Shown here: positions 5,455 to 26,315 of the stretch, piece by piece | Layout: every line of letters starts with the position of its first letter | How positions within the stretch are numbered: position 1 is the first letter of the stretch | Origin: Nitrospirota bacterium | Lineage (GTDB): Bacteria > Nitrospirota > UBA9217 | Assembly: GCA_963741205.1 (NCBI GenBank) | Contig: CAVUHW010000026.1 | Location: 128,001-192,000, forward strand | Direction of reading: 5' to 3' | DNA: 64,000 nucleotides | Translations under genes and position numbers: made by a program | Notes under the pieces: generated by a model | The model's input: the letters and a program-made list of their open reading frames with translations, nothing else | Told to the model about the DNA's origin: nothing | The model's database searches: none

Positions 5455-6459
5455 ATGCTCACCCTCGGAATAGAAACCTCCTGCGATGAAACCGCGGCCG
5501 CCGTGCTGGACAACGAAACGGTCCTGTCCAGCATCGTCTCCTCGCAGACCGACATCCACAAAAAATACGGCGGCGTGGTGCCCGAGCTCGCGTCGCGGGA
5601 ACACTTGAAGAACCTCGTGCCCATCATTCGCGAAGCCCTCGACGCGGCGGCGGTCACTCTCAACGATATCGGCCTCGTGGCCGTCACGTATGCGCCAGGC
5701 CTGATCGGCGCCCTGCTCGTGGGGGTGTCGGCGGCAAAGGCCATCGCGTACGCGCGGGGCATCCCCTTCATCGGCGTCCACCACGGCGAAGGCCACATCC
5801 TCGCCGCTCACATCGAATACCCCGGCATCGGCTACCCGTATATCGCGCTGCTCGTGTCCGGCGGCCATACGGCTCTCTACCATGTCAAAGGGCTTGGAGA
5901 CTACCGCATGCTCGGCCAGACCAGGGACGATGCCGCCGGCGAGGCCTACGACAAAGTCGCCAAGCTCATGGGCCTTGAATATCCGGGCGGCCCGGTGCTT
6001 GACCGGCTCGCGCAAAGGGGAAACCCGGAGGCAATAAAATTCCCGCGCGGCCATCTTGCCGGGTACGATTTCAGTTTCAGCGGCCTCAAAACCGCGGTCA
6101 GGAACCATATCGCGCTCTTCATGAGCAGGGACAAGGGCATTGAGCCGAAACTGGACCTCGGGGACGTTGCCGCGAGTTTTCAGGCGGCCGTTGTGGACAC
6201 GCTCGTCGGAAAGACCATGCAGGCCGCGGCTGAAACGGGCGTGGACAAAATCGTCGTCGCAGGAGGCGTAGCGGCGAACAGTTCACTCAGGGCAAGAATG
6301 GATGACGAGGCGGGGAAACGGGGTATCACACTCTATCTTCCGGGCATGTTCTACTGCATCGACAACGCCGCCATGATCGCACTTGCGGGATACCTCCACT
6401 TCAAGCGCGGAGAGACCTCAGATCTTGACCTGAACCCCCGGGCCGGCATGCCGCTGTGA
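5455..6459 (+). CDS. tsaD: tRNA N6-adenosine threonylcarbamoyltransferase
   Basis: LGIETSCDETAAA, GGVVPELASREH, HGEGH, LVSGGHT, DDAAGEAYDK, FSFSGLKTA, DNAAMIA. Confidence 0.97.
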   Translation: MLTLGIETSCDETAAAVLDNETVLSSIVSSQTDIHKKYGGVVPELASREHLKNLVPIIREALDAAAVTLNDIGLVAVTYAPGLIGALLVGVSAAKAIAYARGIPFIGVHHGEGHILAAHIEYPGIGYPYIALLVSGGHTALYHVKGLGDYRMLGQTRDDAAGEAYDKVAKLMGLEYPGGPVLDRLAQRGNPEAIKFPRGHLAGYDFSFSGLKTAVRNHIALFMSRDKGIEPKLDLGDVAASFQAAVVDTLVGKTMQAAAETGVDKIVVAGGVAANSSLRARMDDEAGKRGITLYLPGMFYCIDNAAMIALAGYLHFKRGETSDLDLNPRAGMPL

Positions 6460-6564
6460 TTTTTTCTCGTACGTGCTGTTTGCAAAGCACCTGTTGAGTC
6501 GAGCACTGCGCTTTTCCTTTACCATTCGAAGGTGTACGATTATTCGAATCCGACCCCTGTCGCA

Positions 6565-7090
6565 CTATGGCCAATAACTAACAAAGCCGTCTCGGTTCGG
6601 CATTTTAACCTGAGGGAGCGTTTTTGCGTCCATCCGCACCTCCGGGTCTATAATGCCGTTGAGGAAAAGAAGGTACGCGCTCACCGCGTAAACTTCGTCG
6701 TTCGAAAGGGACTGAGGAGCATTGAAAGGCATGGCCCTGCGAATATAGTCGAACAGCGTGGTCGCGTAGGGCCAATAGCTCCCGACGGTTTTTACCGGTT
6801 TCTTCGAGGCCAGCGTGCCTATCCCTCCCACGAGGGGATCGGCGGGTCCTTCTATACCCTTCACCCCATGACAACCGGCGCACTTCGCGTTATAAACAGC
6901 TTCTCCTTCGGCAGCCGTACCACTACCGGGAGGAAGTCCGCTTCCATCGGGCGGAATACTGATATCCCAGGCGGCAATTTCTTCGGGCATGACTTCTTGG
7001 CCGAGATTGGGACTGGAGAAGGCAGTTCTGGTAACGAAAATAACGGCAGCCAGTCAGAACGAGGACTCTCAAGAGTTTATTGGTAGACAT
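6565..7090 (-). CDS. monoheme cytochrome c, SoxD-like partner; frameshift in the signal region
   Basis: WDISIPPDGSGLPPGSG, CAGCH, TVGSYWPYATTLFDYIRRAMP, MPNRDGF; ATG 7090 overlaps the soxC stop. Confidence 0.85.
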
Positions 7091-8408
7091 TTCGGATCAC
7101 TCCTTCCGGGCTTATACTCCAGGTCTGAATCGCATTGTAGTGATATTCGTTAGCTACCGAATACTGAGCACGTCCATTTTTCACGGGTGGGCTGGATGTT
7201 CCCTTTCTCATCCGCGGCCCGGCTTTGGAGCAATACGGGGCCCCCATCCCAATTCCAGGGAACACGAAACCGGGTCAGCGCCAGCGGGAGAACTGGAGCT
7301 TGCAGCGCCGCTTTGGCCCAGCTCTTGCCGCCGTCTGCGGAGACCTCCACCTGGGTGATGCGGCCGGAGCCGGACCAGGCGAGACCCGATACTTCGTAAA
7401 AACCCTTCCCCTTCATGGTCATGCCCGCGGAAGGATGAGTAATGACCGACTTGACCCCCATGGGAAAGGTGAACTGACGGGCTCTTCCATCCGGCATCAA
7501 ATCGGTATACTTCGAGGTTTCTTCCCGGCTATAAATAGGTTTTTCCGTGACCGTCAGCCGGCGGAGCCATTTGACGGACATATTCCCCTCCCAGCCCGGC
7601 AGCAGGAGCCGCAGGGGGTAGCCTTGTTCAGGACGGATACGCTCGCCGTTCTGGTAAAGGGCGATCATGGCATCATCCAGGGCTTTCTCGATGGGAATAC
7701 TCCGGTTCATAGCGGCAGCGTCTCCGGCTTCGGCCACGATCCATTTGCCCTTGGGGTCCAATCCGGCTTCGTCCAGCAATAAAGCCAGAGGGATACCCGT
7801 CCATTCGCAGCACGAAATCAGCCCATGGATAGCCCCACAGGACATTTGAGGTGGTTCCGGTCTGGTATTGAAAAGGCTGTTGCCTGAACATTCCAAAAAG
7901 AAGATCCGGCTTACGGTGGGATACCGTAACAACGCCTCGACGGAGAATTTCAGCGGCCTTTTGACTAGGCCATGGATGAGCAGCTCATGCTTGGTGGGAT
8001 CGATGTCCGGAACGCCGCTGTGATGTCGCTCGTAGTGCAACCCGTTCGGCGTGATCGTACCCTGGAGCTGATGCAGCGGAGTCATGGACATCGCGGCACC
8101 TGGAGCAATATCCTTGTATCGCTGGTAGAAGATCCGCTTGACCTCCGTCTTCATATTTGGCAGGGTTGACCATAACCCCGGAACGGCTGTCCGGGTATCT
8201 TCATCCACGGAGGGGTTTCCAGCGCCGGAGACTCCGCTGCTTGCGCCGTCGCCAAAAGATCACCCGAAAGATTGCCTGCCGCCACCAATCCGGCCACCTT
8301 GACCGCGCCTGTCAGAAAGGCCCGACGGTCGAGCAGACCCCGGTCTGCTGCGGGTGCAGGCAGTTCCGTTGTTACTTTTCTTTTTGATATTTTCCACCTG
8401 GATGTCAT
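7077..8408 (-). CDS. soxC: SoxC-like sulfite-oxidase-family molybdoprotein, Tat-exported; two frameshifts
   Basis: DRRAFL Tat motif, TPNGLHYERHH, FLECSGN (Mo-Cys), EQGYPLRL, GWEGNMSVKWL, GLAWSG, YHYNAIQTW. Confidence 0.85.
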
Positions 8409-8506
8409 CGCCCGCCTCCTATCTCTTTAACCATTACGACCGAAATGGAAGGACAAAGGTTGCTAAACCTGCACATCGTTTCGATGAAAACTTTTGAAAA
8501 ATCTGC

Positions 8507-9898
8507 TCACTGGGCAGTAACCGGTTCATATCCAAAATCCAGCGCATTCCCCAGATCATTCGCGGCGGCATCGCGAGTCCCGAGCGGCGCAATATTCCAA
8601 CGTTTTTCGATAAACTTCAAAATAGAGGTTGTATCGTACAGGGTGTGGTCAACATACCCTTTCTTCGCAAACGGAGAGATAATGATTGTCGGAATCCTGG
8701 TTCCCGGCCCCCACCGGTCGCCTTTCGGCGGCGCGACGTGGTCCCATCGGCCGCCGTTTTCATCATAGGTGATGATAATCACGCTGTCCTTCCAGTACGG
8801 GCTCTCCCTGAGCGTCTTGACCAGTTCCGCGACGTGCTGTTGCCCGGCAAGAAGCGATGCATAGCCAGGATGTTCATTGAACGCACCGATGGGCTTTATA
8901 AATGATACCGAGGGCAGGGTACCATTTTTAAGGTCTTTTAAAAACTCCTGTTCGTCTTTTAGATGAGCGCCTCTTGCCGGAGTCCCGTCAGAATAGTTCG
9001 CGAAATAAGCAAAGGGCTGATGATGGTACTGAAAATACTTGTCAGCTTTCCCGGCAAGCGCATCACTCCAGCCTCCTGAATACCACGCCCAGGAAATGTT
9101 TTTTTCCGTCAGCCGGTCTCCAATGGTCGGCATGGTTTGATTCGGCAGGAGTTTACACCGGTCCCCCGCTTTATCCGGGTGCGGCTGGTTCACGGAATAA
9201 ACCGTATTGACAGCGTACCCGTCAGGCGTGATCGCGCCGTCCTGCAGGAGTGTTCCGTTCGAATCGAGCTTTGCAACCAGGGACAGAGGCGCATCAGGCC
9301 AGGCCGGCGTACAGGCGCAGATGAGCCAGAAATGATTCAGGAAGGACCCGCCGAAGGCAGCCTGAAAAAAGTTGTCCGCGATCGTGTATTGGCGCGCAAG
9401 CTTCCCCTCGGGAAGATCGCTCGCGTCGAAATAGCTCATGACCAGTCCGGGGTTGTCGCTCCAGGCGGCGAATTTATCCATTTTGCCGCCGTCGATCTGC
9501 AGCTGGTTCTGATAAAATCGGTGAACAAGGTCCCCTGTTTTCTGATCAATGGAAAGATACTGCAAAAGATCATACGGTTTCGCCGGTATATTTTCAGGAA
9601 AACGCCCGTCATGAACCGCCGGCTTTGAGCTCGTGTCCAGCGGCCCCGGTAATGCCGCCAAAGGTTCCCCTTCCTTGTCCACCTGGTTTACTGCGTTTCC
9701 CGCATTTGCGAGCCCGTTTGCGCCGGGGAACTTTCCGTACAAGCCGTCAAAACTCCAGTTCTCCTGGTAAATAACGACAACGTGTCCGATTTTTTCGAAT
9801 GCCTTCGATGGAACTTCCGCCGGAGCCGGAAAGGGATACAAAAACAGGAAGGCGAAGAACAGTGTTAGCACGCTTCGGATGCGGTGTGAATGGAACAC
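8507..9898 (-). CDS. secreted acid phosphatase / phosphoesterase (AcpA / non-hemolytic PLC family)
   Basis: signal peptide; HVVVIYQENWSFD, GDLVHRFY, FGGSFLNH, FQYHHQPF, NEHPGY, YDENGGRWDH, YDTTSIL. Confidence 0.9.
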   Translation of the reverse strand: MFHSHRIRSVLTLFFAFLFLYPFPAPAEVPSKAFEKIGHVVVIYQENWSFDGLYGKFPGANGLANAGNAVNQVDKEGEPLAALPGPLDTSSKPAVHDGRFPENIPAKPYDLLQYLSIDQKTGDLVHRFYQNQLQIDGGKMDKFAAWSDNPGLVMSYFDASDLPEGKLARQYTIADNFFQAAFGGSFLNHFWLICACTPAWPDAPLSLVAKLDSNGTLLQDGAITPDGYAVNTVYSVNQPHPDKAGDRCKLLPNQTMPTIGDRLTEKNISWAWYSGGWSDALAGKADKYFQYHHQPFAYFANYSDGTPARGAHLKDEQEFLKDLKNGTLPSVSFIKPIGAFNEHPGYASLLAGQQHVAELVKTLRESPYWKDSVIIITYDENGGRWDHVAPPKGDRWGPGTRIPTIIISPFAKKGYVDHTLYDTTSILKFIEKRWNIAPLGTRDAAANDLGNALDFGYEPVTAQ

Positions 9899-10224
9899 TC
9901 TCTCCTCCCATTCTTAACCGAGAAGCAAGGCAATAGCAGCGCGGGATTCCCAGAATACTCATGTTCTGGGAACTGAACAGCACTAAGTGGAACGATTTTA
10001 GTATGGCCTGATCTTTTTGTAAAGAAAATAACAGGAATATTGCTTTTGAGATTTCATTCTCCGATAGGGGTGATTGCCGGGGTATTCACGCCGAGGTAAC
10101 GGGCGATAGCCGCCGTGGTTAGCGAATTCTACTCCGCCCGCGCACAGCAATGCGCGCCCCTATGTCGCTCACTTTCCTGCGCTGCGAGGTGGGACAGTGG
10201 AGTTGCGGCAGGTCAAAGGATTGG

Positions 10225-11922
10225 TCAAAACTTATAGGTAATCAATGCTGTTCCGTCGAATCTGCGATACACATCGGCGATTTTGTAATACGACCCTTCG
10301 GCCGTAAGATAGAGCGATGGGCCGACCTTCACGCTATAGGCCAGATCGAGGTCCAGACCGGCATTCCATTCGTCTCCGTCGGAATGCCTCCGCGTGTATT
10401 GGAAACTGGGTCCGACAATCAAGCGCAGTTCACTGTCCGGTTGAAGCCGATAGGTGGCCTCCAGATGGAGCGCGTTGTTTACGAAAAGGTCCGGGCTGAA
10501 ATAACCTCCCGCAAAGGGCGCGTTATTACTGTCAACAAACCCCGAGTTGTCCTGACTGTAATGGGCTATCTGAAATTTATAGAAGAGAGCAAAAGCAAAT
10601 GCTCCCTCATTGAAGAAATGGAATCTGGCATCGGCGTCAGCGCCGACCAATGAGTTATTGTTTGTTGTATTCGAGCTGACATAGCCTGCATACGGCATCG
10701 CCGAGGCCTGGATCCGCTCACCTTGAAACGCAAGCCTGCAAAATGCGGTATTCGACCTGGCAGCGCCGATCTTCCGCCCCGTCACGCTGTCCGTATCTCC
10801 GGCAATGGCAAGCAGGGAGTCGTATTTGAACGCGCGCCTGATTCCCGGGGTGATCAGCACCCTGCCCTGTTCAGTCGAATATTGGACGAGAAATTCGCTG
10901 TCGCTCTCCGCGTCCTTAAAATCGTGGTACTTCAGCTCCGCGTCTATCCGGCGTGTGGGATCGAAACGGCCCTGCAGCCTCAGTTTATAAAAGGTGCCAT
11001 CGACAGTGGTTTCGTCGTGGCGGTATTTTTCCAGGCCGATTTCTGCCTCGCCGGTCAAAAATGGCGTTATATCCGCCTGGCCGCCTGCGTTCAGCAAATA
11101 GCCGGAGTAAGCGTAATGGCTGTCATCGCTCGACTGCTTGAAATAGGTGAAGCCCGTCTTTATCCGGGGTTCGCGGCCCTGCATGAGATCATCCCGGATA
11201 TGTTTTGCGGACTTGTCCTGTGAATCGTAGCGGAGCGCAAGCTTGGAGTGATAAATGGCGCGATCGTTATCTCCCCGCCAGGCATAGGCAGCGGCCAGTT
11301 CACGATGAGCGGCGCTGTTTCCCGGATTCCGGTCTACCAGGATTTGATACTGCTCGATTGCCTGGTCGATTGTTTCATGGTGCGCGGCAAGAAGCCGGGC
11401 ATATTCCAAACGGACACTGGCATCACCGGGTTTGGCACGCACGAGCAGCTTATATTCAGCGACGGCCTCATCAAAGGTACCCCTCTCCCCGGCCAGCAGC
11501 CTTGCCAGCCGGTGCCGGTTTTCGTAATCTGACTTGTGTTTCAGTCCCATGCGGTAATATTGGATGGCATCTTTTCTCCGGTAGGAAAACCTCGCGTCTT
11601 CAAGGTATCTTGCCTGCTTGAAGGCAATGTCGGCATCGTTGGGGAAGCGCTGCAAATAGCGGTCATAATGCTCAATCGCTTTATCGGTGAGGCCCTGCAA
11701 TTCATAAGCACGCCCGAGGAGCCGCATCGCCTCTTGATTGTCGGGATTAAGCGCAACCAGTTTTTCAAATGACTCAATGGCCGCCTTGTAGTTCTCGATT
11801 TCCATGTTGGCCTTGCCCCGTGACATATACCAGTTTTCTTTGATGTCGGCGTGCACTGCCGTCGCCAGGCAAAGCGACGCGATCATCGCGGCAATTGCCG
11901 CATAAAAAATAGATTTCATCAT
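10225..11922 (-). CDS. TPR + outer-membrane beta-barrel polysaccharide export protein, BcsC-like
   Basis: signal peptide MMKSIFYAAIAAMIASLCLATAVHA; several TPRs; beta-strand C-terminal half with DSLLAIAGDTDSVTGRKIG and GGYFSP (BcsC-like) and terminal Phe (LITYKF). Confidence 0.75.
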   Translation of the reverse strand: MMKSIFYAAIAAMIASLCLATAVHADIKENWYMSRGKANMEIENYKAAIESFEKLVALNPDNQEAMRLLGRAYELQGLTDKAIEHYDRYLQRFPNDADIAFKQARYLEDARFSYRRKDAIQYYRMGLKHKSDYENRHRLARLLAGERGTFDEAVAEYKLLVRAKPGDASVRLEYARLLAAHHETIDQAIEQYQILVDRNPGNSAAHRELAAAYAWRGDNDRAIYHSKLALRYDSQDKSAKHIRDDLMQGREPRIKTGFTYFKQSSDDSHYAYSGYLLNAGGQADITPFLTGEAEIGLEKYRHDETTVDGTFYKLRLQGRFDPTRRIDAELKYHDFKDAESDSEFLVQYSTEQGRVLITPGIRRAFKYDSLLAIAGDTDSVTGRKIGAARSNTAFCRLAFQGERIQASAMPYAGYVSSNTTNNNSLVGADADARFHFFNEGAFAFALFYKFQIAHYSQDNSGFVDSNNAPFAGGYFSPDLFVNNALHLEATYRLQPDSELRLIVGPSFQYTRRHSDGDEWNAGLDLDLAYSVKVGPSLYLTAEGSYYKIADVYRRFDGTALITYKF

Positions 11923-11930
11923 AGGGGTTC

Positions 11931-14900
11931 TCAGAAGGTAAAACCTGCCGCGTAAAAATTGGGTAAAATATTTTTCCGGTAAACCATGCGCATCGGTCTT
12001 TGTTCCGGCTCGCCTCCAAGGATTTGCCATTCACCGTCCGGATCGATGTGCTTCGCGAAAAAGAAGAGTTTTCTGCCCTTTGTGGACTGGTTGCGCAACA
12101 GGGCCCGAATGCTGGATGCCGTTATGAGAGAGCCTCGTCAGCCGGAACCGGGAGCGCCGGACCTCCGTGCGGTTGAGCGTGACGGAGGGGAGAAAAGAGT
12201 TGACAATCCCTTTCAGGAAATAGTATCCCATCATCAGGTTGCTGCCGGTCTGGCCCGCGTGCGCGTTTTTCCACGTATTCGCATCGGCAAAGGTGCGCAA
12301 CAAGAGCTCCCTTTTAGGCCCGGGATCCAGATCGGTGAAACTCACGCCGCACCGGACCGGGCCTCCGTGCCTTCGGTCCTGATACACTCGCCGGGCCGTA
12401 ATGGCAATTGGTTTCTCGTCGAATAATTCCAGGGTCGCCGATGATGGAATGCGGACATCCCGTTCAGGCACAAAGGATGCGCCCGTCAGGCTGATATCGT
12501 GCAGTCTGCCCTCCAATAGGAAGCCGTCCGCTGTCAATCGAAACGGCGCGGCGATGTTTATTCTTTCGCTTTGACGTCTTTGGGGCCTTTCCCAGGCCAT
12601 AAGAAGCGCCACCAGTAAAAAGACGAAATTGTACACCGCCCACCCAAGGTTAATAAAATAGGCCTCCTTTTCGACTCCGAAATAGGTAAATTCTATTATT
12701 CCCTTTATGATCGCAAAAAGGGTAATCGCCGCGGCGATCAGCGTTACCCAGGAGGATGACAAATCAAATTTTCTGGTATCGGAGGTGATGCCTTTGGGAG
12801 TCACCTTGAAGGCCAGCTTCCGGGGTAAAACCAGCTCGAATAAGGACAGAAACAGCGGGAAAGCGACGGCGTTTTCATAGACCACCCCCCAGAACATGCG
12901 CGGCCATCTCTGAAGCAGCGCCGAGGAAAGCAGCGGCAGGCATATCATATACGGAATGAGACGGGCCAAAAGAATTGAAACATCGGAAAAGATCGGGTGC
13001 AGGTGAAAGAGCAGATAGTAGAGCGGCGTAATCCAGAAAACAATTCTGACGATGGGGAAGAAAAAGTAGAATAAGGATGCAAAATAGCCGATCCGGTGAC
13101 GTAATCCCAACCCTTTTTGAAACATCGGGTTATTCTTGAAAAAAATCTGGAGGCAGCCTTGCATCCAGCGCTTTCGCTGCACAATGTAGGACGCGTAATC
13201 CTCCGCAGCGAGTCCCACGGCCAGGTCCTTGTCCACAAAAACAGAGGTATAGCCCTCTGCGTGCAGATGCTGGCTGCTGTGGATGTCTTCGGTGATGCTC
13301 ATCAGTTTGAAACCGCCTATTTTTTCCAGCGCTTTTCTTCGAAACACGGCCCCGCTGCCGACAAAGAAGGCCCCTTCCCAGTTGTTCCTTCCCCCCTGGA
13401 TGCCGTGGTTAAACATGTCTTGTTCATTGGGAACACGCCGTCCGACTCGAAAGGCCCTCTGAAAAATATCGTTGTTATAAAAATGGTGCGGTGTTTGTAC
13501 GACGCCGACCTTCGGGTCATGGAAGAACATTACGGTTTCGTCCAGAAAAGAAGAGACCGGGATATGATCGGTATCGAAGACAACGATCAGGTCTCCGCCC
13601 GTAATTGCCAATGCATTGTTCAGGTTGCCTGCCTTGGCATGCCGGCGCGGCCCCTTGATATAGGTGGCGCCATGTTCAATCGCCAGGTCGCGCACAGCAT
13701 CACGATGACTGTCGTCGAGGATGAAAACGGTTTTATGGGGGTACCTCATCGCGCAGGCCGCGGCCAGGGTCTTTTCCAAAATATCGAGAGATTCAGAGTA
13801 GATGGGGATATAAATATCCACGGACGGCGTATAATTATCGATCGGTGTTGTTTTTTTCTTCTTCTTTTTTAAATTAAGGCCGACCTGGACCAAAAGGAGA
13901 ACAACTGTTGTCAAGCAATAGAACTCCGCAATCCACAGCGAGATACTGATGAAAGGTCCCAGCGTTTCCCGAAAGTTCAGCGTAAAATTGAGACGCCACC
14001 ACAGGTACAGGAAGCAGATCGTAAACCCGCAGGCAAGCAATGCCACTTTAACGACTTTATGGAGGGCTTCCTGTTTCACCTTCAGGAGAAAATAGAGCAG
14101 AATGAAAATCAGTGTCAGCGCCCAGGGAAAGTGCCGCCAAAACCCCTTGGGATCCACCGGCTCGATAAAATCAAAAAAAGCCAGATAATTGCGCGCGACC
14201 CCGGCTTCGAAGGCACGGCCGAACCAGAGCCAGTTGTGCAGGTAATAGGGCGTTTCTTTGTCGGCCAGGGCATTTTTCCAGAGCCCGGTCAACTTCCTGG
14301 TATAGATCTCTTTGGCCAGTCCAGGGTCTTCAATGACGGCCAGCGCCTGAACCGTTGCATACAGCGGAAGGGCTTCAAGCTCGGATCGAGCCTGGCCCTG
14401 CGGGGTATATCGATCAACTATTTTCCCTTGCTGTTTCCATCGGGTTTGGAAAAAAGCCAGCATGGCCCTTCTGAGCTTGCCCTTGCTTCTTCCATGCCAC
14501 TGCGCATCCATGGCGATGCGCCAATAGAGGGGAAAGGCATCATAGCTGAAAAGGGCCTGCCGGTCGTCGTTGGATTTATCGATAAAGAGCCGGCCTGAAT
14601 CCTTGTTCACATAAATTACCTGGGGCGGCAAGGCCACGCCCTGATCGAAATACAGCCATTCTAATATTTCGTACGAGGAATCGATCAGCGCCCCCCAAGG
14701 ATGGCGATGGTCCACCTGCGCAAAGAGCCCGTAGGCATAGGGCGCCAGATAGCCGACGTGGATGGCGGGAAATTTTTCCTGGGGCGCCCAGTCGCCCGCG
14801 GTCGGAAAATACTTTTCGTTGATTTTGATGATTTCCTTGCGCCAGATATCGTCCAGGATGCGCAGGGCGTCGTCTCGATAGCCGGCAATGGAAAATTTCT

Positions 14901-15300
14901 CACTCGCCAGTAAAAGCGCCAGTGCAATGTCCGTGTCCGCATCGGTCGCCGAATTGTTGTCCTGTTTCCATTTCCACGCAAACAGGTGGTCGCCCCTTGT
15001 CATCAGGTGCGTTTTCGTCCATTGATAAACCTGCTGAAACGTCTGACGGTCATTGGTCCATACCGCGCGAAGCATTGCATAGCTCTCACCTTCGGAGGTG
15101 GTGATGCCGTTTTCATCCCAACTGATCACGCGGCCGTCTTTCACGTACGTGTACTTATAGAAATTCCACAATTCATGCAGGCTGTTGAGCTGTTGCAGAG
15201 ATTGGTCGTTTGCATATGCGGTCTTTGCGGAAAAGAGGCAAAGAAAGACTATTCCTAAAAGGAAGACCCTGCGACAGGATTGAAGAACAACGTTAACCAT
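11931..15300 (-). CDS. bcsA: fusion of GH8 endoglucanase (BcsZ-like), cellulose synthase catalytic domain (BcsA, GT2) and PilZ; probable second PilZ after a frameshift near 12105
   Basis: GH8: TTSEGESY, NSATDAD, FSYDAFP. GT2: LDDS, HAKAGNLN, FDTDH, QTPHHF, FFVGS, ITED, QRKRW, FKVTPKG. PilZ: RRQSER, DISLTG. A shifted frame continues LRNQSTKG...YAAGFTF-stop at 11931. Confidence 0.88.
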
Positions 15301-15503
15301 AATGCTGGAGATGCCTTTCCACGATTCTTCTGCGCAAGGCGCATGCCGGGAGAACCCTCGTATTCATATGACCGCCATCGCCCTTCGTGCGGATATTTCT
15401 CGGAATGGAGCAGCCGATTGTCGGTCTTAAGTCGTTTGGAGGGTGTAGCCGGTATCACAGAGGTGAGGAAAGCCATCATGGAATGGCTCTCCTTCTATCC
15501 AAT

Positions 15504-15555
15504 AAAAAACGAGACGTCCGGCGCCGCGGATTTATACCGCTGCGCCGAAGGTCTC
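15504..15555 (-). terminator. intrinsic terminator forming the riboswitch expression platform
   Basis: minus strand GAGACCTTCGGCGCAGCGG-TATAAAT-CCGCGGCGCCGGACGTCTC followed by GTTTTTT; the 5' arm is the 3' strand of aptamer P1. Confidence 0.75.
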
Positions 15556-15637
15556 GCTCATTGGTTGACGCCAACTGCAGGGCCAGGCTTTGCAGCCAGT
15601 ATGTTGACCCTGTAACGATGGAGCTACTCCCCTTCGG
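15545..15637 (-). ncRNA. yybP-ykoY manganese riboswitch aptamer
   Basis: minus strand CCGAAGGGGAGTAGC...CAGGGTCAACATACTGGC TGCAAA GCC TGGCCCTG...TTGG CGTCAA CCAA TGAGCGAGACCTTCGG; matches the AAGGGGAGUAGC...GUCAAnnnAC...GCRAGACCUU consensus with a CCGAAGG/CCTTCGG P1. Confidence 0.85.
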
Positions 15638-16108
15638 AACTGCTCTTTTTTACCTTAGCTCACGGAAAAAGTCAAGAACTATGATTCGCCGGTGGTCATC
15701 TCCTTGATTTGTCCTTGCCGGAATGTCATCAGCATATCGATGTGACGGCCGGAGTTTATGAGATATTTCATTTTCCCCAAAATACTTCTTGCTATTTACG
15801 ATAAATCCTGTATTATTATGCTCGACTGTTTAACAATGCGGCTGGGATTTGACTGAAGTACCCACACACGTCACCATCTCCCCGCCCTTCATATCATCGA
15901 TCATCAACCCCCCCTTGCTTTCAGCTCCCACTCTGAAATCATAACAGCATATATGGTTGGCGAACGATGTAGTTATGCCGGTCATATCTGTGCTGGCGTC
16001 GTCTTCGCTCTCGGGAATACACATGTGTTCCTGCGGCCCGCACGCAAACCTTTAACGGGATTTCCCTGTCCGCATGAATATTGCTGCCGGGAGAACCAAA
16101 GGAGAATA

Positions 16109-17500
16109 ATGCCTTTTTCAAAACTGCAGCTCATCGAACCGATCCTCAAGGCCATAAAACTGTGCGGCTATACCGCGCCTACGCCCATCCAGGAGCAGGC
16201 CATTCCCAAGGCCCTGGCAGGTCAGGACCTGATCGCAACGGCCCAGACCGGTACCGGGAAAACCGCGGCCTTCGTGATGCCCGCGCTCCAGCGTCTCAGC
16301 GTACCGTCAACCTCCACCAAAAGATCCAAAGGTCCCCGCGTGCTCGTGCTCACGCCCACGCGCGAACTGGCGAACCAGGTGACCGAGGCGGTCAAAACCT
16401 ACGGCAAGTTCATGCGCATCCGAAGCGGTGTTATCCTCGGCGGCATGCCTTATTTCGAACAGCAGCGGCTTCTCTCGCAGCCGGTGGATCTCATCGTCGC
16501 GACTCCCGGGCGGTTGATCGACCACATGGAACGGGGCCGCATCGACTTTTCGCGTCTGGAGCTTCTCATCCTCGACGAAGCGGACCGCATGCTCGACATG
16601 GGCTTCAGCGACGCGGTTGACACCATCGCCGCTGCGACCCCTGCGGACCGCCAGACCCTCATGTTCACGGCGACCATGGACAACGCCATGGCGAAGCTCG
16701 CCCAGCGCCTCCTGAAGGACCCGGTGCGAGTCGAGATCGCGGGAAAAAAGACCACGCTCGAAGCGATCGAGCAGCGGCTCCACGCGGCCGACGACATGCA
16801 GCACAAGAACAGGCTCTTGAACCACCTGATCGCCGACAACGGCATGACCCGGGCGCTCATCTTCTCGGGCACCAAGCGGAACGCCGATCAACTTGCCCGC
16901 GAGCTTACTGCCCAAGGCCACTCCGCGGCCGCCCTGCACGGCGACATGAACCAGAACGCCCGGAACCGCACGATCATGAACATGCGCCGCGGAAAAATCC
17001 GTCTCCTCGTTGCAACGGACGTGGCAGCGCGCGGGCTCGACGTGACCGGCATCACCCATGTGATCAATTACGACCTGCCGAAGAATGCGGAAGACTATGT
17101 CCACCGCATCGGACGCACGGGAAGAGCGGGTGCGTCAGGCATCGCCATCTCCTTCGCGTCGTCAAAAGAAGTAGATTTTCTGCACCAGATCGAACGCTAC
17201 ATAGGACAGACGATCCCCCAGCAGGTGATCCCGGGGCTGGAGCCGTCGCGTCCGTTGCGCCGCTCAAGCGGCGGGAGCAGTCAGGGACCTTCATCAGGCA
17301 AACGCTGGCAGGGGGCTTCGGCAGGCAGGCGCTACGGGCAGAACACCGCGTCAAGAAATCCCTTTGGTTCCAGGACCGACAAAAAGTGGAATGGGGAATC
17401 CCGTTTCAATAATGATGACAAGAAATTCGTCAAGCGCGACGGAGGCAAGTTCGCGGACTTCAAACCGTCCAGACCGGCCCGTCAAAGCCGCTGGGCGTAA
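16109..17500 (+). CDS. DEAD-box RNA helicase (RhlE/CshA-like) with basic C-terminal tail
   Basis: Q-motif PTPIQ, AQTGTGKT, PTRELA, ATPGRL, DEAD, HGDM, ARGLD, HRIGRTGRAG; AAGGAG RBS. Confidence 0.95.
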   Translation: MPFSKLQLIEPILKAIKLCGYTAPTPIQEQAIPKALAGQDLIATAQTGTGKTAAFVMPALQRLSVPSTSTKRSKGPRVLVLTPTRELANQVTEAVKTYGKFMRIRSGVILGGMPYFEQQRLLSQPVDLIVATPGRLIDHMERGRIDFSRLELLILDEADRMLDMGFSDAVDTIAAATPADRQTLMFTATMDNAMAKLAQRLLKDPVRVEIAGKKTTLEAIEQRLHAADDMQHKNRLLNHLIADNGMTRALIFSGTKRNADQLARELTAQGHSAAALHGDMNQNARNRTIMNMRRGKIRLLVATDVAARGLDVTGITHVINYDLPKNAEDYVHRIGRTGRAGASGIAISFASSKEVDFLHQIERYIGQTIPQQVIPGLEPSRPLRRSSGGSSQGPSSGKRWQGASAGRRYGQNTASRNPFGSRTDKKWNGESRFNNDDKKFVKRDGGKFADFKPSRPARQSRWA

Positions 17501-19929: not shown

Positions 19930-19956
19930 GTTTTCCCAGATTTAAAAATCATATTT

Positions 19957-20031
19957 TGTCATTCCTGCGAAAGCAGGAATCCATGTTGTATTTGAAGAGC
20001 CAATGGATTCCGGGTCAAGCCCGGAATGACA
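19957..20031. repeat. palindromic repeat doublet (TGTCATTCC...GGAATCCA / TGGATTCC...GGAATGACA)
   Basis: tgtcattcctgcgaaagcaggaatcca ... tggattccgggtcaagcccggaatgaca. Confidence 0.85.
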
Positions 20032-20064
20032 GCGTGAGGATATGAGGCTTTACTAACGAAGTTT

Positions 20065-26228: not shown

Positions 26229-26315
26229 TGGTGCCGGAGGGGGGACTCGAACCCCCACGGGATTGCTCCCACTGCGCCCTGAACGCAGCGCGTCTACCAG
26301 TTCCACCACTTCGGC
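26229..26315 (-). tRNA. tRNA-Leu(CAG)
   Basis: GCCGAAGTGGTGGAACTGGTAGACGCGCTGCGTTCAGGGCGCAGTGGGAGCAATCCCGTGGGGGTTCGAGTCCCCCCTCCGGCACCA; long variable arm, CAG anticodon, encoded CCA. Confidence 0.96.

Follow-up and report, generated by a model that had tools for sequence, protein, structure and literature searches.

We analyzed a 64,000-nt stretch of DNA from an uncultivated Nitrospirota bacterium (assembly GCA_963741205.1, contig CAVUHW010000026.1, positions 128,001 to 192,000; the whole stretch is called the window below). The analysis concerned a leader RNA of the yybP-ykoY class of manganese (Mn2+) riboswitches, which is located upstream of a two-gene, cellulose-type polysaccharide synthase module. 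The leader consists of a promoter, an aptamer, an intrinsic terminator and a ribosome-binding site (RBS) followed by the first codons of a truncated gene; all of these elements, as well as both module genes, lie on the minus strand. The promoter (15647..15675) was read from the sequence, with a -35 element TTGACT at 15675-15670, a 17-nt spacer and a -10 element TAAAAA at 15652-15647. The gene upstream of the leader is divergent.

The first gene of the module (12031..15300) encodes a protein of 1089 aa with an N-terminal signal peptide. According to Pfam it is a fusion of a GH8 (BcsZ-like) domain (aa 20-334), a GT2 synthase domain (494-766; matches to the Pfam GT2 families and to Cellulose_synt) and a PilZ domain (PF07238, 907-999). 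Its start codon is located 203 nt past the T-run of the terminator. The preliminary description of this locus, which was made from the letters of the window, placed a GH8-BcsA-PilZ gene about 200 nt downstream of the riboswitch and a BcsC-like gene after it, and this arrangement was borne out. We compared the fusion with NCBIfam models and obtained 527.6 bits (E = 4e-158) for CelA (TIGR03030, cut-off 699.1) and 401.6 bits for NF008558 (cut-off 992). Judged by these scores the synthase is clearly homologous to CelA/BcsA and is best called BcsA-like. In comparison with a 54% identical homologue from genome G044, residues D576/D578, T670-E671-D672 and Q708-R709-x-R711-W712 of the synthase were invariant, and so were R909...R913 and D935-x-S937-x-x-G940 of PilZ. 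We take these positions to be the DxD, TED, Q(R/Q)xRW, RxxxR and DxSxxG motifs, respectively.

The second gene (10225..12030, a frame of 601 aa) encodes a BcsC-like outer membrane protein with TPR and beta-barrel regions. Pfam detected TPR families and, over aa 383-549 only, BCSC_C (34.9 bits, cut-off 23.5), while the score against NCBIfam BcsC was 41 bits vs 858. The protein was 60% identical to its counterpart in locus L024, with a complete C-terminus and approximately 110 aa less TPR sequence. An 8-nt gap between the two genes had been reported and has to be corrected. The TGA of bcsA directly abuts the ATG of the bcsC frame, which gives a gap of 0 nt; homology to L024 and the signal peptide place the likely start at ~11922, which gives a gap of ~108 nt.

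As in canonical BcsA-BcsB-BcsZ-BcsC systems, the module contains a GT2 synthase with C-terminal PilZ, a GH8 hydrolase and a TPR/beta-barrel porin. Unlike in those systems, the GH8 hydrolase forms the N-terminal part of the synthase protein, the scores fall below NCBIfam equivalog cut-offs, and BcsB (PF03170) was not found in the 6 fusion-carrying draft genomes searched, the genome of the window (84.5% complete) included. The fusions named in the relevant passages of a published account of Bcs systems (PMC7112194) are BcsZC and BcsAB, and BcsZ-BcsA is not among them there. The pair of the fusion and the BcsC-like gene recurs in G044, in six GTDB species genomes (54-75% identity; labelled Thermodesulfobacteriota, Desulfobacterales, Desulfosudis, Nitrospira or "bacterium") and in 21 metagenome loci; the fusion-module loci were L014, L024-L042, L044 and L046. 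Such a compact architecture, without detected BcsB, merits biochemical study. We found no match to the fusion in 14 other genomes of the same genus, which fits horizontal acquisition.

The aptamer (15545..15637) had already been proposed in the preliminary description, and comparison with relatives supported it. It has the three-way-junction form without P2, composed of P1, L1, P1.1, P3 with L3, and P4. The L1 motif GGGGAGUAG, the L3 motif GUCAACAUAC and the 3' GAGACC core of the window copy agree with the consensus of the Rfam family RF00080. The RNA is conserved in four other genomes, with 82-86% identity to G013 and G006 (same genus) and G029 (same family), and 73% identity to G055, which belongs to another family of the phylum. 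L1 and GAGACC were invariant in 5/5 aptamer copies and L3 had a one-base change in G013. In the cassettes that could be aligned (4/4) the -35 element was invariant and the -10 element (TAAAA) was kept. Helices P1/P1.1, P3.1/P3.2 and P4 were modelled with 25 pairs, all of which are present in the window copy; four were changed on both sides (compensatory), with that number of pairs reached in one of 500 shuffles, and all four compensatory pairs were contributed by one sequence, G055. In the five-sequence alignment 98.4% of cells of the P1/P1.1/P3/P4 structure were paired, compared with 16.5-56% in slid controls. A covariance model obtained from the five copies scored the window at 112.7 bits. 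Judging from this conservation, the RNA encoded at 15637-15545 is an aptamer of the yybP-ykoY Mn2+ class, and it is intact. In place of P2 the window aptamer has 3 nt, compared with a 17-position hairpin in RF00080, and an 8-nt linker is left. We considered the form without P2 as a novelty and dropped it, since alx and mgtA are already known three-way-junction members; for the same reason P2 does not strictly define the class.

The Rfam model itself gave a different picture. RF00080 aligned end to end at 15481-15637 (minus strand) with 19.0 bits (E = 0.0043 in a 701-nt search), while the gathering score of this family in Rfam 15 is 45 bits. Thus, of the Rfam check suggested in the preliminary description, the full-length alignment was obtained and the gathering score was not reached. 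The 19.0-bit score alone proves nothing, because a match of 18.3 bits elsewhere in the genome (L001), the best one in a search of RF00080 over the whole genome, sits inside a 359-aa open reading frame (ORF) and was rejected as a false positive. The other matches in that search reached 9.5 bits (L002) and 8.7 bits (L003), and the aptamer of the window was absent from its results. We did not find the aptamer motif at four short DNA matches (L009-L012, 21-42 nt). The only match at gathering level in the whole window was a tRNA of 84 nt with a long variable arm (26232-26315, minus strand, 43.1 bits).

We attribute the low Rfam score to the RF00080 model together with the lineage's own P2-less form. 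This Manganese model has 177 positions; it contains a long 3' hairpin and has no pairing for P1. Among the GDT1-linked orthologues it gave 22.7 bits for L007 and 18.2 bits for L006, and the other two were unreported at E<=1. Nine of the 11 context-supported aptamer copies in relatives were likewise unreported at this threshold; the model misses or under-scores all 11 copies in this family. In control genomes RF00080 was above the cut-off in only 2/14. Scans at gathering level will overlook Mn riboswitches in such lineages.

Downstream of the aptamer we identified the intrinsic terminator (15504..15556), whose 5' arm overlaps the 3' strands of P1.1 and P1 and whose stem is followed by T6 at 15509-15504. 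In the minimum-energy fold the P1/P1.1 3' strand (~15556-15537) pairs with 15529-15510 and forms a long GC-rich hairpin. The doubling of the P1 3' strand as a terminator arm with a T6 tail, as noted previously, was therefore recovered in the fold. The minimum free energy was -72.2 kcal/mol (z = -5.6) and none of the 200 shuffles was as stable. The terminator state had -68.2 kcal/mol, compared with -45.9 kcal/mol for the best fold retaining all aptamer pairs. An expression platform competing with P1 is thus present, since the P1/P1.1 3' strands lie inside the terminator 5' arm. In these folding models the terminator state is preferred at equilibrium, as one would expect of an ON switch under kinetic control.

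Past the terminator we found what the preliminary description had overlooked, although it was right about the leader and the genes downstream of it: a remnant of another gene (15454..15494), composed of an RBS, AAGGAGAG, at 15494-15487 and, from the ATG at 15479 on, the first 8-9 codons of a gene for GDT1/UPF0016. In G013, G006, G029 and G055 the RNA is followed, ~20-40 nt past the terminator, by a gene of 216-222 aa which belongs to PF01169 GDT1/UPF0016 (E between 6e-42 and 1e-47). These ORFs begin with MTAFLTS or MLAYLAS and the frame in the window begins with MMAFLTSVI. In the alignment, the homologous DNA shared with the relatives begins at ~15690, takes in the promoter, aptamer, terminator, RBS, ATG and 8-9 codons, and ends at ~15454. 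The two E-x-G-D-(K/R)-(T/S) repeats of PF01169 are present in the genes of the relatives and absent from the window, where the stump ends before the first motif. The coupling to this gene is the rule according to a review (PMC7380456): of 333 strains screened that have a UPF0016 gene, 328 had it under yybP-ykoY control. Since the cassette of the relatives drives GDT1 and the homology in the window stops after 8-9 codons, sequence comparison indicates that the leader is the orphaned remnant of a truncated gene for a GDT1/UPF0016 Mn2+ exporter.

We searched the whole genome with the G006 protein (tblastn) and found no further GDT1 fragment in this contig. The only other GDT1 of the genome is located on contig C30 (G000:C30:138308-138846; L022 1343-1899, minus strand). 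This copy is 77% identical to the G006 protein, it has no leader RNA, and it begins inside the last part of the preceding gene, which we take to be RNase PH-like. Its frame breaks near residue 130, by a frameshift or an assembly error. Decay of GDT1 was also observed elsewhere in the genus, where the G001 copy has an internal TAG and G002 retains a fragment only. In the window the stump continues into unrelated sequence as a chimeric ORF of 74 codons (15255..15479, minus strand), which overlaps the start of bcsA by 46 nt in another frame. No Pfam family was found in its 74-aa translation and it is probably not a real gene product.

A spacer of 153 nt (15301..15453) separates the breakpoint from bcsA. 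The leader and the module are part of a low-GC island of 9.3 kb (6460..15778), which lies between tsaD (5455-6459) and a DEAD-helicase gene (15953-17500); its GC content is 0.48-0.56, compared with 0.59-0.64 in the flanks. In G001, G002, G013 and G014, 13-107 nt separate tsaD from the DNA that precedes the DEAD-helicase gene (from window position 15779 on). In the fifth genome of the same genus that we compared, G006, neither flank was matched. The adjacency of the flanks in 4/5 genomes indicates an insertion of 9.3 kb, on either side of which core synteny is restored. We did not find convincing repeats flanking the island, and no further copy of the DNA at the junction or in the spacer turned up elsewhere in the genome.

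The genome is a draft (50 contigs, 4.9% contamination), and a riboswitch-GDT1 locus could have been wrongly joined to a bcs locus at ~15454. For this reason the join was examined in public sequencing runs. None of the 24 runs listed exceeded 18% of sampled words, with at most 11% for the RNA-type runs X13, X14 and X18, and four runs were compared with the window by contig alignment. Record 3 of X2 (1355 nt) covered 14905-15368, 15384-15402 and 15488-15651, and record 12 of X5 (645 nt) covered 15145-15368 and 15488-15687, in both cases colinearly. The two contigs come from different studies and both span the 5' end of bcsA and the leader. They have 153 letters where the window has 119, which is far short of the room needed for a 660-nt GDT1 gene. 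A third contig, from X1 (168 nt, 99% identical), stops exactly at 15452, which is a weak hint of a false join. Against it stand the two bridging contigs, the core synteny on both sides of the island, which is not expected from a single chimeric join, and the unique junction DNA, which offers no repeat to cause a mis-join. An assembly chimera is very unlikely. The possibility of a misassembly near 15450, raised in the preliminary description, was in this way answered by synteny and by contigs from two studies.

We then considered what the leader does now. The preliminary description had seen in this locus a two-gate system, in which Mn2+ would act on transcription and cyclic di-GMP (c-di-GMP) on activity. 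As a design characteristic of minimal synthase systems this has, in our estimation, only a slight chance of being right. The juxtaposition is real and common to the sister lineage, and there is a parallel in B. subtilis, where YybP and MeeY (YkoY), which are riboswitch-regulated, are described in a published report as needed for exopolysaccharide production and biofilm metalation (PMC13598126). The link there is indirect, via membrane proteins, while here the synthase gene itself stands behind the riboswitch. The other loci speak against such a design. With the five-copy model we detected the aptamer in 0/35 other BcsA-homologue loci (by our own count, approximately 22 of them contain the full fusion and extend roughly 300 nt or more upstream of it), and Rfam reported no family at E<=1 in the seven fusion-homologue loci to which it was applied, so the expectation that homologues of the fusion share the RNA was not borne out. 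The closest homologues have other upstream neighbours, namely a Ser/Thr kinase, a DDE transposase (L030) and a Mo-oxidoreductase. The spacer had no homology to upstream DNA of 28 fusion-homologue loci, where homology begins at 15214, inside the coding region. The same model found 11 aptamer copies in 10/64 genomes of the family; the 10 copies other than that of the window precede GDT1 (3), Na_Ca_ex (1), P-type ATPase (1), Band_7 (3) and zinc-ribbon ORFs (2), and bcsA follows none of the 10. Finally, the GDT1 stump means that the leader was not built for bcsA. On this evidence Mn control of the synthase would be a lineage-specific capture and is not a design common to the synthase family.

The leader could also be an inert relic, with bcsA-bcsC transcribed from their own promoter in the spacer or silent, and with the riboswitch yielding a short terminated transcript or the meaningless 74-aa peptide. 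We consider this unlikely, although several observations agree with it: the leader demonstrably comes from a deleted GDT1 gene, GDT1 decays elsewhere in the genus (the TAG in G001, the fragment in G002 and the seemingly frameshifted C30 copy), and none of the 35 homologue loci needs such a leader. On the other side, no independent promoter was found by a crude, sigma-70-like consensus scan of the minus strand at 15000-16200, and this includes 15300-15480, for which the preliminary description had asked whether bcsA has a promoter of its own. The scan is insensitive: it skipped the cassette promoter, whose -10 element does not end in T. Between the leader and the gene body we found a single terminator-like site, a weak one inside the coding region (15280-15266). 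Neither a promoter-like site nor a convincing terminator was thus detected between the leader and bcsA.

The leader is also fully intact, with its -35 element, all 25 modelled pairs, the L1/L3 motifs and the terminator with its T6 undamaged, and it is better conserved than the adjoining coding DNA. In comparison with the sister lineage it had 6/164 differences (X2) and 10/200 differences (X5), whereas the 5' part of bcsA had 34/464 and 22/224, respectively. Most of 15369-15487, the diverged stump included, was below 85% identity in the sister contigs. The binomial probability of at most 6/164 differences in X2 was 0.04 at the coding rate and 2e-6 at a rate of 15%. This conservation fits purifying selection after the capture, in a comparison with one lineage.

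The reading that we prefer is that of a captured Mn2+ riboswitch leader, which has lost its GDT1 gene and now stands before an acquired bcs module. The comparisons showed what the RNA is, which gene it first served, where the breakpoint lies, that the island exists and that the join is real, and we consider this reading as a whole probable. The leader, with its promoter, P2-less aptamer, terminator and RBS, would first have driven the gene of a GDT1/UPF0016 Mn2+ exporter. Deletion or recombination at ~15454 would then have removed the exporter gene past codon 8-9 and left the leader 153 nt upstream of the horizontally acquired bcsA-bcsC module inside the island. The bcsA-bcsC transcripts probably begin at the leader promoter, because it is the only recognisable promoter there and the leader is undamaged. 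Read-through past the terminator would occur only when Mn2+ stabilises P1, and the enzyme would still be gated by c-di-GMP through PilZ. We consider it plausible, with about an even chance, that read-through into bcsA depends on Mn; such control would be specific to this lineage. That the leader has been kept by selection, so that it makes a c-di-GMP-gated, BcsB-less synthase inducible by Mn2+ (an exaptation), is a possibility which we put forward tentatively.

Several observations weigh against the captured leader as a functional control element. There was no match to RF00080 at gathering level in the window. The arrangement of leader and bcsA was not found in the other GTDB species genomes searched. 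The X2 and X5 contigs share most of their differences as well as the 153-letter stretch, so they represent one sister lineage. The unaligned middle may be an indel (153 vs 119 nt) and not the result of fast substitution, which weakens the argument for selection. The RBS of bcsA is poorly spaced and the chimeric 74-codon ORF crosses its start. Further, a promoter in the spacer is possible, as the scan missed even the promoter of the cassette.

We compared the leader with described riboswitches. The alx aptamer of E. coli lacks P2 (PMC12153347), and the mgtA aptamer of S. pneumoniae, which is built around a three-way junction, responds to Mn2+ by activating transcription read-through (PMC6649816). 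The window RNA shares with them the L1/L3 metal-core motifs, P1-P1.1, P3, P4 and the three-way junction. It, too, uses a transcription terminator for its expression platform. It is unlike them in that the downstream gene encodes a polysaccharide synthase and not a transporter, in its Rfam score (19 vs 45 bits) and in that Mn2+ binding is predicted. With riboswitch-controlled UPF0016/GDT1 exporters of the MneA/Mnx type it shares the leader, since orthologous leaders drive such genes in G013, G006, G029 and G055, but the window keeps only 8-9 exporter codons. Among the orthologues and relatives there are aptamers upstream of genes for Mn or cation transport (GDT1 in four cases, Na_Ca_ex and P-type ATPase), while in the window the transporter gene is truncated.

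The RNA class, the P2-less form and the GDT1 target are already known; what is new is that a synthase gene stands behind the switch and that the route by which it came there can be read. In full-text searches of the literature we found nothing tying a yybP-ykoY or manganese riboswitch to a cellulose or exopolysaccharide synthase, in agreement with the preliminary description, in which no such case was known. A riboswitch regulon is commonly seen as a fixed link between a ligand and a pathway; here the history of a capture is legible in the DNA. If the read-through is Mn-dependent, it provides a simple natural route to metal-responsive production of matrix, and in this uncultivated bacterium the production of slime may have come under Mn control by accident. 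The locus would in that case also be a ready-made test case for the re-use of cis-regulatory RNA. If the exaptation is true, it would be the first case in which a metal controls an exopolysaccharide synthase directly through a riboswitch. It would also be a natural, datable example of regulatory capture that followed the truncation of a gene, in a lineage of soil or sediment for which exposure to Mn may matter.

Among the aptamer copies of the family we observed a second, more canonical-looking subtype. It is located upstream of Band_7/SPFH genes in L059 (G071), L060 (G070) and L061 (G074), and before small zinc-ribbon (PF13453) ORFs in L056 (G074) and L058 (G018). Neither Band_7/SPFH genes nor zinc-ribbon ORFs count among the classic transporter targets of Mn riboswitches.

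Apart from the synthase module, the island contains genes for a Mo-oxidoreductase (Oxidored_molyb, 7150-8208) and a phosphoesterase (8507-9898), both recognised by Pfam. A Mo-oxidoreductase gene is also found directly upstream of the fusion homologue of G044 (L014 596-1336), and it could be a recurring neighbour. The interval between the phosphoesterase gene and the BcsC-like gene contains a piece of 97 nt (9947-10043) which is 85% identical to G001:C9:703339-703434, and this was the only part of the island interior matched in the five same-genus genomes compared. Outside the island, at 19950-20046, we observed an element of ~75-95 nt, to which no Rfam family was assigned at gathering level. 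Copies with 78-88% identity are present in G006 (at least 9 places) and in G014 (3 places), and we regard it as a possible dispersed repeat or small mobile element.

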